This document shows positions 3,454 through 41,856 of a DNA stretch of 64,000 bases, in pieces. The notes beneath the pieces are model-generated. The model was given only the letters and a program-made list of their open reading frames with translations. It did not search any database and had not been told where the DNA came from. The stretch is from Alphaproteobacteria bacterium (lineage in GTDB: Bacteria > Pseudomonadota > Alphaproteobacteria > UBA2966): positions 1,121-65,120 of the forward strand of contig JASLXG010000071.1 of the NCBI GenBank assembly GCA_030740435.1, read 5' to 3'. Each line of letters begins with the position of its first letter. The stretch's first letter is position 1. Made by a program: the position numbers and the translations under genes.

Positions 3454-4129
3454 CAAGAAACCCCATTATCTCGGCCATCGCGACCGCCTGAGAAAACGCC
3501 TGGCCAGCGACGCCGGCGGCCTGGCCGATTACGAGCTGCTGGAATTGGTGCTGTTTCTGGCCAAGCCCAGAGGTGACGTCAAGCCGCTGGCCAAGGACCT
3601 GCTGGCGCACTTCAACAAAGATTTCGCCGAGGTGATGAACGCCGATCCCGCCCGCCTCGAGGAAGTCAGTGGCGTCGGCGAAAGCACCATCGCCGCCCTC
3701 AAGACGGTGCGTGCCGCGGCGCTGCGCCTGGGCCAGGCGCAGGTGCTCAACCGCCCGGCGCTGAGCTCATGGCAAGCGCTGCTGGAGTACTGCCGTTCCT
3801 CAATGGCCTACAGCAGGACCGAACGCTTCCGCATACTTTTTCTCGACCGCAAGAACTTCCTCATTGCCGACGAGGAGCAGCAAAAGGGCACCGTCGACCA
3901 CACCCCGGTCTACCCCCGCGAGGTGGTCAAGCGCGCCCTCGAGCTCGAAGCCTCGGCCATCATCATGGTGCACAATCACCCCAGCGGCGACCCGACACCC
4001 TCCAAGGCCGACATCGCAATGACCCGCGAAGTGGCGGCGGCCGGCGAGAAGCTGGGGATTTCGCTGCACGACCATGTGGTCATCGGCAAGAAGGGGGAGG
4101 CCAGCTTCAAGGCGCTGGGGCTGCTTTAG
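3446..4129 (+). CDS. radC: RadC-family JAB/MPN domain protein
   Basis: Has an N-terminal helix-hairpin-helix region and the C-terminal JAMM motif 'HNHPSGDPTPS'. Overlaps the map stop by 8 nt. Confidence 0.9.
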   Translation: MADKKPHYLGHRDRLRKRLASDAGGLADYELLELVLFLAKPRGDVKPLAKDLLAHFNKDFAEVMNADPARLEEVSGVGESTIAALKTVRAAALRLGQAQVLNRPALSSWQALLEYCRSSMAYSRTERFRILFLDRKNFLIADEEQQKGTVDHTPVYPREVVKRALELEASAIIMVHNHPSGDPTPSKADIAMTREVAAAGEKLGISLHDHVVIGKKGEASFKALGLL

Positions 4130-4570
4130 TTAGGCCGCCACCTCGCCCCCTTCCCGCTTCTCGATCAACGCCACCAAATCCGGCCACACCGGCACCGACT
4201 TGTGGCTGGTCTGGTCAGTGTTGACCCAGACGATCTCGCCCGTGCTGAAAAGCCGCTCGCCGCCCTGCTCGAAGATGGCGGCGGCGAAGGTGAGGCTTGA
4301 TCGGCCGATCTTCGATACCCGCACGCCGACCTCGATCACCTGGTCGTAGAGCATGGGTTCCTTGTAATCGACGCTGGCCCGCACGACGTGGAAGTCGGCA
4401 CCGGTGCGCTTGACCTCGGCCATGTAGTCGTAGGGCAGCTCGCGGAAGTATTCGGAAATCGCGGTGTCGTAGTAGATGAGATAATTGCCGTAGAAGACCA
4501 CGCCCTGGCCATCGGTTTCGGCGTAGCGCACGCGGAAGGGAAAGAAGAAGTTGAAGTTTTGGCGGGCCAT
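4130..4570 (-). CDS. Acyl-CoA thioesterase, 4HBT/YbgC hot-dog family
   Basis: 146 aa. 'FPFRVRYAETDGQGVVFYGNYLIYYD' is the typical YbgC-type N-terminus. Confidence 0.85.
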   Translation of the reverse strand: MARQNFNFFFPFRVRYAETDGQGVVFYGNYLIYYDTAISEYFRELPYDYMAEVKRTGADFHVVRASVDYKEPMLYDQVIEVGVRVSKIGRSSLTFAAAIFEQGGERLFSTGEIVWVNTDQTSHKSVPVWPDLVALIEKREGGEVAA

Positions 4571-4575
4571 GGGCG

Positions 4576-6681
<2,106 letters not shown>

Positions 6682-6727
6682 TCCATGAGTTTAGAATTGG
6701 TATGGGGCGGAGCCGCCCGTGGCGGCC

Positions 6728-7426
6728 TCAGGAAACTTCCAGCCATTCCTTGCGCACGTTGTCGTTGGCACGAAACTCGTCGGGCGTGCTCTCGAAGACG
6801 ATACGGCCGTGGCCCATGACGTAGAGGCGATGGGATATCTTGAGCGCGATGGTCAGCTTCTGCTCGACCAGCAGGATGGAGACGCCGCGCTTGGCGATCT
6901 CGTCCAAAAGGTTGGCCACCTGCTCGACGAGCTTGGGCGCCAGGCCCTCGGTCGGCTCGTCGACCATGACCAGCTCCGGGTCCCCCATCAAGGTGCGGCA
7001 CATGGTCAGCATCTGCTGCTCGCCCCCCGAAATGACGCCGCCCGAGGTGTCGGCGCGTTCGCGCAACTGGGGAAAGATACGAAACATGTCGTCGATCGAC
7101 CAGCGCCCGGTCTGCTTGGTGCCCTTCATGCCGAGAATGAGGTTTTGCCGCACCGTCAGGGTGGGAAAGATGTCGCGGTTCTCGGGCACGTAGCCCAGCC
7201 CGAGCCGGGCGATGTCGTGGGTCTTGCGGCCGGCGATTTCGCTGCCGCGGAACTTGATCGAGCCCTGGGGCGGCACATCGCCCATGATGGCCTTGATGGT
7301 GGTCGAGCGGCCCACGCCGTTGCGTCCCAGCAGGCTGACGATCTCGCCCTCGCCGACGCTGAAATTGACGCCCTGCAGGATATGGCTTTTGCCGTAGTAG
7401 GCGTGGAGATCTCTGACCTCAAGCAT
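6728..7426 (-). CDS. Branched-chain amino acid ABC transporter ATP-binding protein, LivF/BraG-like (no partner subunits adjacent)
   Basis: Walker A 'GRNGVGRST', signature 'ISGGEQQML' and Walker B 'LVMVDEPTEGL'. Confidence 0.85.
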   Translation of the reverse strand: MLEVRDLHAYYGKSHILQGVNFSVGEGEIVSLLGRNGVGRSTTIKAIMGDVPPQGSIKFRGSEIAGRKTHDIARLGLGYVPENRDIFPTLTVRQNLILGMKGTKQTGRWSIDDMFRIFPQLRERADTSGGVISGGEQQMLTMCRTLMGDPELVMVDEPTEGLAPKLVEQVANLLDEIAKRGVSILLVEQKLTIALKISHRLYVMGHGRIVFESTPDEFRANDNVRKEWLEVS

Positions 7427-36514: not shown

Positions 36515-37525
36515 TTAGCCCGATTGCTCCGCCGCCACCTCGATCATGCGTTTACCGCGGTTCTCGCCGGCCAGCAGTCCGATCAGTGCCGCCGGGGCAT
36601 TTTCCAGGCCGGGGATGACGTCTTCCACCACCACCAAGTCACCCGCTTCGGCCCAGGCCGAGAGCTCGGCCACGGCCTCGGCGTCGTGGGCGGCAAAATC
36701 CATGACGATGAAGCCTTGCAGCTTGAGACGCTTGACCACGATCAGGCCGGGGACGCCGCGGGGGCTCGACATATCCATGGTGTCGTATTGCGAGACGGCG
36801 CCGCAGCAAACCACGCGGCCGCCCTGGTTCATCTGGAAAAGCGCGGCCTCGAGCACGGCGCCGCCGGTGTTGTCGAAGTAGACGTCGATGCCGCCCGGGC
36901 AGGCCGCCGCCAGACGCTTGGCGAAGCCCCTTTCCCGGTAGTCGACCGCCTCGGCAAAGCCGAGCTCTTCGACCAGCCAGCGGCATTTGTCCGGGCCGCC
37001 GGCGATGCCCACGGCGCGGGCACCCTTTAGCCTGGCGATCTGGCCCACCAGCGAGCCCACCGAACCGGCGGCGGCGGAAACCGCCACGGTCTCGCCGGGA
37101 CGCGGCGCGCCGATCCGCATGAGGCCGTGGTAGGCCGTCTTGCCGGCGATGCCAAAGACCGAAATATGATGGCTGAGCGGCCGCTCGGGCGGCACCGGGC
37201 TGGCCTCGGCCGCCGCCATGGTGGCGAATTCGGCCCAGCCGCCCTCGCCCGCCACCACGTCGCCGGCGGCGAAGGCTTGGGCCCTCGATTGCACCACTTG
37301 GCCGATGACGTAGCCATGCATGACGTCGCCCGCCTTGACCGCCCGGCGGTAGGTCGGGCCCTGCATCCAGGCGCGGTTGGCGGCATCGAGCGAGATCAGC
37401 AGCGTCCGCACCAGCAGCTCGCCGGCGGCCGGTCTCGGGACCTCGCTTTGCTGCAGCTCGAAATGCCCCTCCGCGAGCGCGCCCCGGGGGATTTCCCGGA
37501 CAATTATCTGGCTGTGTTTAGGCAT
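36515..37525 (-). CDS. NADP-dependent oxidoreductase, MDR family (YncB / alkenal reductase type)
   Basis: 336 aa with the cofactor motif 'AAAGSVGSLVGQIARLKG'. No zinc ligands. Confidence 0.9.
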   Translation of the reverse strand: MPKHSQIIVREIPRGALAEGHFELQQSEVPRPAAGELLVRTLLISLDAANRAWMQGPTYRRAVKAGDVMHGYVIGQVVQSRAQAFAAGDVVAGEGGWAEFATMAAAEASPVPPERPLSHHISVFGIAGKTAYHGLMRIGAPRPGETVAVSAAAGSVGSLVGQIARLKGARAVGIAGGPDKCRWLVEELGFAEAVDYRERGFAKRLAAACPGGIDVYFDNTGGAVLEAALFQMNQGGRVVCCGAVSQYDTMDMSSPRGVPGLIVVKRLKLQGFIVMDFAAHDAEAVAELSAWAEAGDLVVVEDVIPGLENAPAALIGLLAGENRGKRMIEVAAEQSG

Positions 37526-37603
37526 GATGCCGGCGATCCTAACCCGGATTGCCGAGACGCGCCCAGCACGCTTAGACTAGTCACGCAGCAGAAGGAGAAC
37601 CCC

Positions 37604-38476
37604 ATGCCGCCTTTTGACTACATCGCTTCCATCACCGACCGCTACCAGCGGCTGGGTTATCAGACCTATCGCTGGTTCCAGGCGGACGAGCCGCCGGCCT
37701 TCGCGCCCATGACCAAGCCGCTGGCCGAATGCAAGCTCGGCGTGCTCTCGACGGCGGGCGTCTACGTCAAGGGCCAGGTGGCCTACTATTACAAGGACGA
37801 CACCTCGTTCCGGGCCATCCCCAAGACCACGCCGACCTCCGAGATCCGCTTCTCGCACCTCACCGAGCACTACCTGCCCGACGCCCGGCGCGACGCCAAC
37901 TGCGTCTTTCCCATCGAGCCCCTGCGCCGGCTCGAGGCCGAGGGCGTGATCGGCGAGCTGGCGGAGGAGCTATATTCGTGCATGGGCGCCGTCTATTCGC
38001 AACGCCGCGCGCGCGAGGAGCTGATCCCCGCGCTGGCCGCCGAGTTCGCCCGCCAAGAGGTCGACGTGGTGGCGCTGGTGCCGTTGTGACCGGTCTGCCA
38101 TCAGACCGTGAGTCTGATCGCCCGACACATCGAAGCCCAAGGCACGCCGACAGTGTGCCTGGCCAGCGCCCGCGACATCATCGCCGCCGGCAACTCGCCG
38201 CGCGCCGTCTTCGTCGACTATCCGCTGGGCCACACCACCGGGCGCCCCTTCGAGCCCGAAGAGCAAACCGCCATCGTACGCGCCGGCCTCGAGGCGCTGG
38301 AGGGCATCAAGGAGCCCGGCACCATCCTCGATCTCGGCTATAGTTGGCCCGACCCGGGCTGGCAGCGCGCCGAGGACGACATGGACAGCGGCGACGAGCG
38401 CGAGCCCCGCGGCGACCAGCCAGTCTACCAGTTCGAGGAAGACCGGCTGGCCGCCGAGGCGGCTTTGGCAGGGTAA
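37604..38476 (+). CDS. GrdB/PrdB-family (selenoprotein B-like) reductase with in-frame TGA 38087-38089, candidate selenocysteine
   Basis: ATG 37604 follows GAAGGAGA. Two same-frame ORFs are separated only by TGA. The junction 'VALVPL-U-PVCHQTVSLIARHIEAQGTPTV...YPLGH' parallels the Sec region of GrdB. The downstream ORF has only a GTG with no SD. Confidence 0.65.
38090..38116 (+). promoter_or_regulatory. Candidate bacterial SECIS-like stem-loops immediately 3' of the TGA
   Basis: cggtctg(38091-97)-ccat-cagaccg(38102-08). The alternative is cagac(38102-06)-cgtga-gtctg(38112-16). Confidence 0.4.
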
Positions 38477-39750: not shown

Positions 39751-40206
39751 ATGGGTCTTTATTTCGAGGAGTTCGAGCTCGGCCACAGCATCACCACCGG
39801 CGCCCGCACGGTGACCGAGGCTGACGTGACTATGTTCGCCGGGCTCTCGGGCGACTTCAATCCGCTGCACTGCGACGCCGCCTTTGCTGCCCAGAGCCCT
39901 TTCGGCGAGCGCATCGCGCACGGCCCGCTGGCGCTGGGCATGGCTATCGGGCTGATGTCGCAGCAAAATCTGATCGATGGCACGGCGCTGGCGCTGCTTA
40001 ACGTGAATTGGGACTTTCAGGGCGCGGTAAGGCTCGGCGACACCATCCACGCCCTGGTCACGCCGCTGGAGAAGCGGCCCAGCGCCAAGCCCGACCGCGG
40101 TGTCGTGAAGCTCGGTTTCGAGGTCGTGAACCAGGCCAGCGAGACGGTGCAGACCGGCAGCGCGACGTTGTTGATGCAGACGCGGGAGGGCCGAGGCGGG
40201 CCCTAG
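39751..40206 (+). CDS. MaoC-like (R)-specific enoyl-CoA hydratase/dehydratase
   Basis: 151-aa hot-dog fold with '[14 protein letters not shown]...FGERIAHG'. Confidence 0.9.
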
Positions 40207-41159
40207 AACGCGACCCCGCGTTCCTCCAGAAACCGGGTCATGATATCGACGCAGACGTCCGGCTTTTCCAGCTGCAAGAGGTGCCCGGTGCCCGGCACGA
40301 CCTCATACGGATACCCGAATTCGGCATGCAACGCAGCGTTCGAAAGCGCCGTCACGGCCGGGCTGGGCATCTCCGGGTCGCCGCAGATCATCTTCGCGGG
40401 ACCGCCGTAACGGTCGATGCGGTAGGCGAACGTGGTCGGCGTCACGTCGAGGTAGACGGCGGCTTCGCGTTCGGGGCGGCAGACCAGGCGCCATTCGCCT
40501 GCCGAGACATCCAAACGCAGTACCGAGCGCGCCATCAGGTCGTGGGCGCCTGGCTGCCAGGAGCGGTTGGCCCGGGTTCCGGCGAAGACCTCGGCCAGTT
40601 CGCCGGGATCGTCGAAGCGGGTCCGGCGCGCCGTGGCCCAGGCCGCCAGCTTGCGTTGCGTCGCGGCGGCGGCCTCGTAGACCTCGTGCCCGGGCAAGGG
40701 CGGCAGCGGCGGGTCGAAGAGAAAAAGCGCATCCCAGCGCCAGCCGAAATCGGCGGCGTGCATCATGGCCGCCAGCGCCGACAGCGAATGAAAGGCACCG
40801 ATGTTGGTGCCTGGGCCCAGGCGCTCGTCGACGGCCGCGATGATGGCCTCGAGATCGCGGGCGAAGCGGGGGAAATCGTGGGCCCCGGCGTGCAGCGGGT
40901 TGAGGCCGTGGTTGCGCTGGTCGAAGACGATAACCTCGAAACGATCGAGCAGCAGCCGCCAGAAGGGAAAGTAGCCGTCGCTGGCAAAGCCGTTGCCGTG
41001 GCTGACGAAGAGGCGGGCGCCACCGGCCCGGCCGTGGCGGCGCAGGCGGATTTGGGCACCGTCATCCATCATCAGCTCGAAGCTCTCCAGCGGCGCCGGT
41101 GGTTCGAGGGGCAGGACGGGGCTTGGGCTGGTCAACGAAGGCGTACAATCGATCGACAC
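40203..41159 (-). CDS. Alpha/beta hydrolase fold protein
   Basis: GTG 41159 preceded by AGGAG. 'HGNGF...FDQRNHG' and the nucleophile-elbow-like 'AFHSLSA'. ATG 41072 is an alternative start. Confidence 0.7.
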
Positions 41160-41208
41160 GCGGGACTCCTGGTTCAGCCGAGTTTGAACGGTGCCGCAAG
41201 CATAGCAA

Positions 41209-41856
41209 CTACTGTTCGGGCTGGTCCTCGCCCTCATCAGCCACCAGGTCGGCGACCTCCGCCGGAGGCCCAGGCTCGCCCTGGGGCGTGGTGTCGCTCT
41301 CACGCAGCACGCTATCGCGCCTGTCGTGATGATCCTTGAAGACCGCTTTGAGTTCGAATACCGCCTCGTCGATGCGCTCCAGGTGGGCCACGGCCAGGTC
41401 GCTGACCGCTTCGCCGCCGGGCGTATTGAGGTAGTCGCCCAGGCCGGCGAGAAAGAAGTCGACGGCGCCCAGGTAGTCGTCGATGCTGCGGGCTCGGCGC
41501 ATGTAGGACTGGTGGACGTTGCGCAGATTGGCCACCAGGATCTTGATCAGGCCCCTGACGAACTTGTCCGAGCGGTCCAATTTGGAGTCCAGCACGGCGC
41601 GGGGAAGGACCACGATGCTGGCAGCCTCCGTCGCCTGGGCGCCGGCCATGCGGGGGCTCTGGTCGATCAGGGCCATTTCGCCGAACATCTCGCCCTTGCC
41701 CAGATGGGCCAGGCTGACGCGTTCGCCGTCGACCGTTTTGAAGACCTCGACGCTGCCCGATTCGATGAGGAAGGCGGTATTTCCTTCGCTCCCCTCGTCG
41801 AAGACGATCTCGCCTTTGCGATAGAGTTTCTTGTTCAGGAATTCGGGGCTGCTCAT
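41209..41856 (-). CDS. Cyclic nucleotide-binding domain protein with uncharacterised C-terminal half
   Basis: CAP_ED motif 'GEMFGEMALI...PRMAGAQA'. The start overlaps the stop of the GMC oxidoreductase gene by 4 nt. Confidence 0.8.
   Translation of the reverse strand: MSSPEFLNKKLYRKGEIVFDEGSEGNTAFLIESGSVEVFKTVDGERVSLAHLGKGEMFGEMALIDQSPRMAGAQATEAASIVVLPRAVLDSKLDRSDKFVRGLIKILVANLRNVHQSYMRRARSIDDYLGAVDFFLAGLGDYLNTPGGEAVSDLAVAHLERIDEAVFELKAVFKDHHDRRDSVLRESDTTPQGEPGPPAEVADLVADEGEDQPEQ

Follow-up and report, generated by a model that had tools for sequence, protein, structure and literature searches.

We describe a gene at positions 37604-38476 (plus strand) of a 64,000-nucleotide stretch of DNA from an Alphaproteobacteria bacterium (GTDB lineage UBA2966; GenBank assembly GCA_030740435.1, contig JASLXG010000071.1, positions 1,121 to 65,120 of the forward strand), hereafter called the window. 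An in-frame TGA interrupts this gene, and comparison with its relatives makes it very probable that the locus encodes a PrdB-like protein containing selenocysteine (Sec), with a functional selenocysteine insertion sequence (SECIS) just after the TGA. Profile matches place the product in the GRDB superfamily (PF07355), where the PrdB subunit of D-proline reductase is the closest relative to have been characterised. The window protein is not a proline reductase subunit itself, and the genes found beside its relatives suggest that it acts in a pathway of acids activated with coenzyme A (CoA), possibly dicarboxylic ones. The elements of the gene are, in window coordinates:

37591-37598, plus strand: Shine-Dalgarno sequence GAAGGAGA, 5 nt upstream of ATG 37604, read from the sequence
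37604-38476, plus strand: coding sequence of the predicted PrdB-like selenoprotein, 290 aa (frame, profile matches and tblastn)
38087-38089, plus strand: UGA codon, putative selenocysteine (U162) and first residue of a U-P-V-C redox motif (homologue column)
38096-38098, plus strand: TGC codon, Cys165, probable resolving cysteine of the UxxC motif, invariant in the 27 full-length sequences aligned
38097-38121, plus strand: candidate SECIS element (covariation, RNAalifold and single-sequence fold)
38336-38473, plus strand: clade-specific C-terminal extension of ~45 aa in which W, R, P and D residues are conserved (...W...W...R.PR..P.YQ..DR..AE; alignments A3 and A5)

A single 290-codon frame leads from ATG 37604 to TAA 38474-38476 on the plus strand with one internal stop, the TGA at 38087-38089; if this codon is decoded, the product has 290 aa and Sec is residue 162. 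A preliminary description of the locus, made from the letters alone, had reported two open reading frames (ORFs; 37127..38089 and 38108..38476) in a common frame with only the TGA and six codons between them, a 290-aa read-through product, an upstream Shine-Dalgarno sequence, the peptide around the TGA, and a GTG at 38108 that opens the downstream ORF with no Shine-Dalgarno sequence before it. All of these are present in the sequence. The start Met is the same Met as that of P0023, a homologue with 86% identity. GC content at third codon positions (GC3) is 0.91 on the 5' side of the TGA and 0.87 on its 3' side, in the same frame. When the TGAs of the window were scanned for a coding signature on both sides (GC3 > 0.82 and second-position GC, GC2, < 0.58), this was the only one in the 64 kb with such a signature on both sides in one frame, so a chance origin of the frame is unlikely.

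The residue at the TGA can be read from homologues. The stitched window protein was searched against 5.8 billion proteins, and among the best 120 matches ~27 were full-length homologues (~290 aa, 43-59% identity), while most others had 160-169 aa. In the full-length proteins aligned, the TGA column holds Cys in 13 of 14 cases and Thr in one (P0027); the nine short homologues aligned all end exactly at this column, with ...VPL or ...VPM. For the DNA comparison, one genome per GTDB species was scanned; relatives are encoded at 385 loci, and 85 related loci were compared. The preliminary description had left it to orthologues to show Cys or TGA at this position, and both occur: the codon is TGA at 83 of the 85 loci, TGT or TGC at two, and TAA or TAG at none, with P[VI]CHQ directly following it in 85/85. 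Because TGA alternates with Cys codons and with no other stop, the column carries the classical Sec/Cys signature. Matches by tblastn in 80 genomes cross the TGA, spanning residues ~3-287, and 78 of the 80 retrieved GTDB species genomes carry it. Almost all host genomes are metagenome-assembled genomes (MAGs); the hosts belong to the Alpha-, Beta- and Gammaproteobacteria. Vineibacter terrae CC-CFT640 (NZ_VDUZ01, locus L076) is a cultured carrier of the TGA form, whose Sec-spanning peptide would read ...VPM-U-PVCHQTVSLAAR. The nearest relative of the window, with 84% identity, is a Red Sea Rhodospirillaceae MAG (locus L010).

These data bear directly on two simpler explanations. If the TGA were a true stop, the locus would be either a nonsense-mutated pseudogene or two genes of 161 and 122 aa, which is how gene callers split it in every public assembly examined, and an in-frame GTG does lie six codons downstream. 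Such a stop should not occupy the same column in three proteobacterial classes, in 83 of 85 loci, never as TAA or TAG and alternating only with Cys codons; moreover, the six codons from TGA to GTG encode PVCHQT, the most conserved part of the protein, the GTG has no Shine-Dalgarno sequence, and the hairpin that follows the TGA covaries (see below). We regard a true stop as extremely improbable. An error of sequencing or assembly, with TGA standing for TGC or TGT, is refuted by independent assemblies that keep the TGA, and we give it practically no chance: the exact 161-aa N-terminal ORF is recorded in 93 blocks of public assemblies, and the TGA is kept in three independent contigs from three samples, each 1-2 single-nucleotide polymorphisms per 873 nt away from the window, as well as in the GTDB genomes counted above.

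The second line of evidence for a selenoprotein gene is the RNA structure that follows the TGA. Two hairpins had been pointed out there in the preliminary description, and both are present in the sequence, but they fared differently: the second is conserved and two pairs longer than had been stated, while the first (38091-38108) is not conserved, 2 of its 7 pairs being broken in 41 of 78 homologues with no covariation, and was rejected. In the second hairpin, the core stem AUCAGAC (38100-38106) pairs with GUCUGAU (38112-38118) around an apical loop CGUGA (38107-38111), and the outer pairs G38097-C38121 and C38098-G38120 flank a C·C mismatch; the last two bases of the Cys165 codon thus double as outer SECIS pairs. 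The core stem begins 10 nt after the UGA, and G residues in the 5-nt loop are invariant. Alignment A2 brings together 78 distinct Sec-form sequences, each taken from 6 nt upstream of the TGA to 45 nt downstream of it. Across them 98.6% of hairpin cells are paired, and two pairs are compensatory (U-A to C-G in 46 and 28 sequences, G-C to A-U in 70 and 7). None of 500 shuffles reached the observed values, and sliding the 3' arm by 1-3 columns as a control brought pairing down to 22-36% of cells. RNAalifold independently predicts the same helix. Synonymous sites in the hairpin are frozen despite a GC3 of ~0.9: Thr is always ACC (78/78), Leu always YTG (78/78), and the next codon always NGT. In the six Cys-form loci tested, 4-7 of the 9 hairpin pairs are left and residues of the 3' arm differ.

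Several results weigh against a selenoprotein gene at this locus. RNA folding of the region, which the preliminary description had proposed as a check, gives a minimum free energy fold that includes the second hairpin, but its single-sequence folding energy is not exceptional (z = -1.4), so that the case for the hairpin rests on comparative evidence. The covarying positions fall in codons, and conservation is consequently partly at the protein level. The hairpin also has no bulged U. In this, and in its own sequence (AYCARAC-CGKGN-GUYUGRU in alignment A2), it differs from the SECIS of E. coli fdhF, which has a bulged U; the two are alike in being hairpins within the coding sequence, just 3' of the UGA, with a stem that begins 10 nt (here) or 11 nt (fdhF) after it and an apical loop that is small and has conserved G and U. 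No Rfam family reached its gathering threshold over the window, and scanning 37900-38300 permissively turned up nothing but a chance match. As for the Sec machinery, searches with the E. coli SelA, SelB and SelD proteins (tblastn) and for tRNA-Sec (ARAGORN) found none of them in the 64-kb window, and the same search in all related loci, flanks included, found only selD, in locus L045. Finally, the searchable literature holds no experimental report of selenium incorporation in any member of the clade.

The absence of Sec machinery from the window would suit a UGA that ribosomes pass without selenium, for instance through near-cognate insertion of Trp or Cys or under an altered code, with the hairpin merely stimulating the process, as downstream hairpins can do in general. 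We consider this very unlikely. TGA is an ordinary stop in this organism, since four Pfam-validated genes of the window end in it (acyl-CoA synthetase, DctQ, SnoaL and GMC oxidoreductase), and members lacking the TGA have Cys at the homologous residue, where PrdB has its catalytic Sec. In addition, a hairpin 10 nt after the UGA with a small G-containing loop fits the bacterial SECIS, for which a small apical loop with conserved G and U is the defining element in the Sargasso Sea survey (PMC1088965). A selD gene does stand beside one family member: in L045, a groundwater gammaproteobacterial MAG, the PrdB-like gene (6001-6846) has a divergent selD homologue ~1.3 kb upstream (3654-4655, minus strand), with 35% identity to E. 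coli SelD.

The assignment of the predicted selenoprotein to the GRDB/PrdB superfamily, made earlier from the letters, agrees with the profile searches. Pfam GRDB matches with 28.4 bits against a gathering threshold of 22, a partial match over residues 94-158 that ends just before Sec, and the best NCBIfam match is D-proline reductase PrdB (TIGR04483, E = 1.5e-43, profile positions 17-233 of 238). The superfamily is large, as a profile search of 1.84 billion representatives returned 2801 clusters at E <= 0.001, 155 of them at E <= 1e-30. The Sec column was likewise placed correctly. NCBIfam identifies one of these representatives, P0186 (241 aa), as a genuine PrdB, with 453 bits against the equivalog cut-off of 300, and in a joint alignment the window TGA falls on its Cys151, inside G-C-G-T-C-H; residue 151 is the catalytic selenocysteine of Clostridioides difficile PrdB (PMC11229817). 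P0186 ends before the segment that forms the C-terminal extension of the window clade, and Cys126, conserved in the clade within the motif SCMGG, is Phe in PrdB.

The high-confidence AlphaFold2 model of P0002, a Cys homologue with 59% identity (model m26b7a9ebc3f5; predicted local distance difference test, pLDDT, 90.6; predicted template-modelling score, pTM, 0.92), places residue 162 between a strand (155-159) and a helix (163-178). In the model, this strand-helix junction would be a typical place for a redox-active pair. Sequence searches of the PDB with the single window sequence and with a profile found no match, and a Foldseek search of the P0002 model against the PDB gave nothing significant (best E = 0.03, TM <= 0.32), so structure gives no functional hint; in the PDB copy searched, the GrdB/PrdB fold seems to lack any solved representative. 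Among distant PrdB-like relatives of ~250 aa, scoring 105-168 bits to TIGR04483, the Sec column holds Cys, Ser, Thr, Gly or Trp (alignment A5), and in some the second Cys is missing too; selenol/thiol chemistry at this position is therefore closed to part of the superfamily.

Could the protein nonetheless be a genuine B subunit of D-proline or glycine/betaine reductase, with its PrdA or GrdE partner and the electron-transfer proteins encoded elsewhere in the genome? PrdB is its best NCBIfam match, the Sec column and UxxC motif are as in PrdB, and the selenoproteome literature places the family under 'proline reductase PrdB'. Nevertheless, the chance of this is slim. The window protein scores 149 bits, half the cut-off of 300 for TIGR04483, and is ~30% identical to a genuine PrdB; with the GrdB-type models (TIGR01917, TIGR01918, NF040794 and NF040795) it reaches 42-44 bits against cut-offs of 65-800. 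As a control, the genuine prdB of P0186 sits in a prdA-orf149-prdB operon, whose PrdA (PF09338) has 601 aa, and a tblastn search of the window and of 85 related loci from different species with this PrdA gave no match better than E = 3.7. CoA enzymes are found as neighbours instead, a C-terminal extension is peculiar to the clade, and its hosts, Alpha-, Beta- and Gammaproteobacteria, are not known to be Stickland fermenters. Because of the score and the missing PrdA, we conclude that the protein is not PrdB proper, and the earlier suggestion of a stand-alone protein distinct from the classical Stickland reductases holds, both in its scores below the PrdB and GrdB cut-offs and in the lack of a PrdA/GrdE-type gene in the window or the 85 loci.

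Set beside the known enzymes, the window protein shares with PrdB of C. difficile and Acetoanaerobium sticklandii the superfamily fold (by profile), the Sec column (U151 followed by xxC-H) and probably the same kind of selenol/thiol chemistry. It differs from them in having no prdA, prdH-like ORF or prdC nearby, and in its ~45 extra C-terminal residues, Cys126, proteobacterial hosts and CoA-metabolism neighbours. With protein B of the GrdB/GrdF/GrdH type it has in common the Pfam superfamily and, according to reviews, UxxC at the Sec site, but its 290 aa correspond to only the C-terminal ~150-230 of 431-435 profile positions, and no GrdE-type gene (PF09338) lies near it. A genuine prdA-orf149-prdB operon at L088 (887-3896) and L089 encodes a PrdB with Cys, not Sec, at position 151; the 149-aa ORF between prdA and prdB there has no Pfam match on record.

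In the window itself, Pfam names the neighbours as MDR oxidoreductase, crotonase, LEH/SnoaL, MaoC hydratase, alpha/beta hydrolase, GMC oxidoreductase, acyl-CoA synthetase, DctQ and dodecin, in agreement with the earlier naming of an MDR oxidoreductase, a MenB/BadI-type crotonase, a SnoaL/LEH-like protein and a MaoC hydratase. This arrangement is common only to the closest relatives (L010, L001 and L002), with crotonase-family matches scattered in 17 loci, and a family-wide operon of MDR, crotonase, SnoaL, MaoC, hydrolase and GMC genes was accordingly rejected. De novo clustering of flanking ORFs yielded no universal partner gene; it did give a recurrent theme of CoA enzymes, which Pfam bore out. 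Counting only adjacent, co-oriented genes in 87 loci, we obtained:

Acyl-CoA dehydrogenase: 9 of 87 loci
Class III CoA-transferase (CoA_transf_3): 11 of 87 loci
Acetyl-CoA hydrolase/transferase: 7 of 87 loci
AMP-binding CoA ligase: 2 of 87 loci
Enoyl-CoA hydratase: 1 of 87 loci
Five control families (ABC ATPase, ABC permease, LysR, MDR dehydrogenase and GMC oxidoreductase): 0 of 87 loci

In about one third of the loci, a CoA-transferase, acyl-CoA dehydrogenase or CoA ligase directly adjoins the PrdB-like gene in the same orientation, and within 6.5 kb of it 56/87 loci contain one or more CoA-family genes. Each of the seven Cys-form loci retrieved with annotation has a CoA-family gene adjacent or one gene away, and in three of the seven the neighbour ends at most 20 nt from the start codon or overlaps it. 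Syntenic loci are not independent, yet the association still spans at least three enzyme families and different lineages. As these transferases, dehydrogenases and ligases are recurrent and often translationally coupled, a CoA-activated carboxylic acid may well be the substrate or mark the pathway. The transferases are most like succinate-glutarate or mesaconate CoA-transferases and the dehydrogenases most like PimC or glutaryl-CoA dehydrogenase, all below the respective cut-offs. A role in carnitine, betaine or dimethylsulfoniopropionate metabolism, to which the neighbours' resemblance to CaiABCD and to DmdBCD/DddD might point, was rejected: it has no specific NCBIfam support, and the CoA-transferases are closer to succinate-glutarate, mesaconate and formyl-CoA transferases than to CaiB (again below cut-offs).

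Other results count against this functional assignment. No CoA-family neighbour reaches an NCBIfam equivalog cut-off, and for this reason no substrate can be named. About two thirds of the loci, the window included, have no directly co-transcribed CoA enzyme. In the window the gene is monocistronic, with the MDR oxidoreductase divergent upstream and the adjoining MenB/BadI-like crotonase convergent downstream. The function is, moreover, drawn from homology and gene neighbourhood alone.

Some individual loci deserve mention. A Cys-form operon at L092 (4850-10545) comprises an IclR regulator, an acyl-CoA dehydrogenase, the PrdB-like gene, whose start overlaps the dehydrogenase stop, a 258-aa protein that matches nothing in Pfam or NCBIfam, and a 964-aa molybdopterin/4Fe-4S oxidoreductase; divergently upstream lie a CoA-transferase, an alcohol dehydrogenase and a flavoprotein. 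This operon could help to find the substrate. Just downstream of the Cys-form PrdB-like genes of L090 (6967-9423) and L099 (2668-5124) lies a gene whose 818-aa product contains two class III CoA-transferase domains, and L090 also has an NMT1_2-type ABC transporter. In the window, the alpha/beta-hydrolase ORF (40203-41303, minus strand) overlaps by 95 nt the 3' end of the upstream ORF 41209-41856 (minus strand; 215 aa, unverified). Its true start is probably further downstream, since its Pfam match begins only at residue 99.

Two further observations concern the PrdB-like loci as such. Opposite the PrdB-like gene, ORF clustering found an antisense ORF of ~180 aa in 64 loci (e.g. L076:5845-7260, minus strand); in all likelihood it is no gene but a shadow ORF, produced by high GC content opposite a conserved gene. 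Loci L003, L004 and L005, three contigs of one ENA sample, share one PrdB-like gene and its core surroundings (upstream HTH_24, NusG-like and sugar-nucleotide genes, downstream rplU-rpmA-obg-proB) and differ in flanking IS66, IS110 and IS1595 insertions, which suggests co-existing strain variants with active insertion sequences.

By analogy with established bacterial Sec insertion, the UGA at 38087-38089 would be decoded as selenocysteine during translation, with the hairpin at 38100-38118 acting as a bacterial SECIS that recruits SelB and Sec-tRNA(Sec) to the ribosome. Homology and modelling would then put Sec162, at the column of the catalytic Sec151 of PrdB, together with Cys165 in a U-x-x-C selenol/thiol pair at the N-terminus of a helix following a beta-strand. 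In PrdB, Sec attacks a carbon of the substrate, and re-reduction of the complex comes later (PMC11229817); by homology, Sec162 may be the nucleophile or reductant that attacks the substrate, and the UxxC motif suggests that Cys165 could resolve the adduct to a selenenylsulfide, to be re-reduced by a general cellular thiol system. A more specific scheme, to which we attach only a low probability, makes the clade a PrdA-independent selenoenzyme acting on CoA thioesters. In it, a carboxylic acid, probably dicarboxylic or substituted, would first be activated by a class III CoA-transferase or a CoA ligase; attack of Sec162 on the activated carbon would then remove a substituent (C-N, C-S or C-O) reductively. 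Speculatively, the thioester would serve as electron sink in place of the pyruvoyl-iminium of Stickland reductases, and Cys165 would resolve the selenoether.

The preliminary description had implied that such a selenoprotein is novel, which it is not. A 'proline reductase PrdB' family (UxxC, pfam07355), with 42 Sec genes, ranked third in abundance among the selenoprotein families of the Sargasso Sea (Zhang, Fomenko & Gladyshev 2005, PMC1088965), and Zhang & Gladyshev 2008 (PMC2398784) count 235 Sec genes and 110 Cys homologues of it in the Global Ocean Sampling data. In the Sargasso supplement, 13 sequences have the motif uPVCHQT, identical to that of the window protein, and the DNA given for one of them, AACY01353529, has the same hairpin after the TGA (TGA CCAGTTTGCCACCAGACCGTGAGTTTGGTTGCT; PMC1088965). 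Another Sargasso sequence, AACY01190956, is 47% identical to the C-terminal half of the window protein, clade-specific extension included. The window gene has everything by which the marine family was recognised, that is pfam07355, UxxC and a hairpin after the TGA, and it is another member. The difference lies in interpretation: both surveys (PMC1088965, PMC2398784) treat the family as proline reductase and, in the portions consulted, do not remark on the missing PrdA or the CoA neighbourhood. Later reviews list only 'D-proline reductase, TIGR04483, UxxC', and some database records name members 'glycine/betaine/sarcosine/D-proline family reductase selenoprotein B'. In the incomplete searchable literature, we found no paper on the absence of PrdA or on a link to CoA enzymes, whether under 'PrdB-like' or GRDB/CoA-transferase. 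The selenoprotein call is sound but not new, and the link to CoA enzymes is the new lead.

For the family as a whole, these results matter in two ways. Public gene callers split the gene into ORFs of 161 aa and 107-124 aa in every assembly examined (also in L001-L005 and L094-L096), and the family is for this reason under-annotated, its members being systematically mis-annotated as two hypothetical proteins; the SECIS consensus would allow automatic repair of these annotations. Furthermore, a family that ranks among the most abundant predicted selenoproteins of the surface ocean has for twenty years been filed under the name of a clostridial Stickland enzyme whose obligatory partner it lacks, and its linkage to CoA-transferases, acyl-CoA dehydrogenases and CoA ligases offers a testable route to the real substrate. 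If action on CoA thioesters proved true, it would be a new reaction class for this very abundant family.

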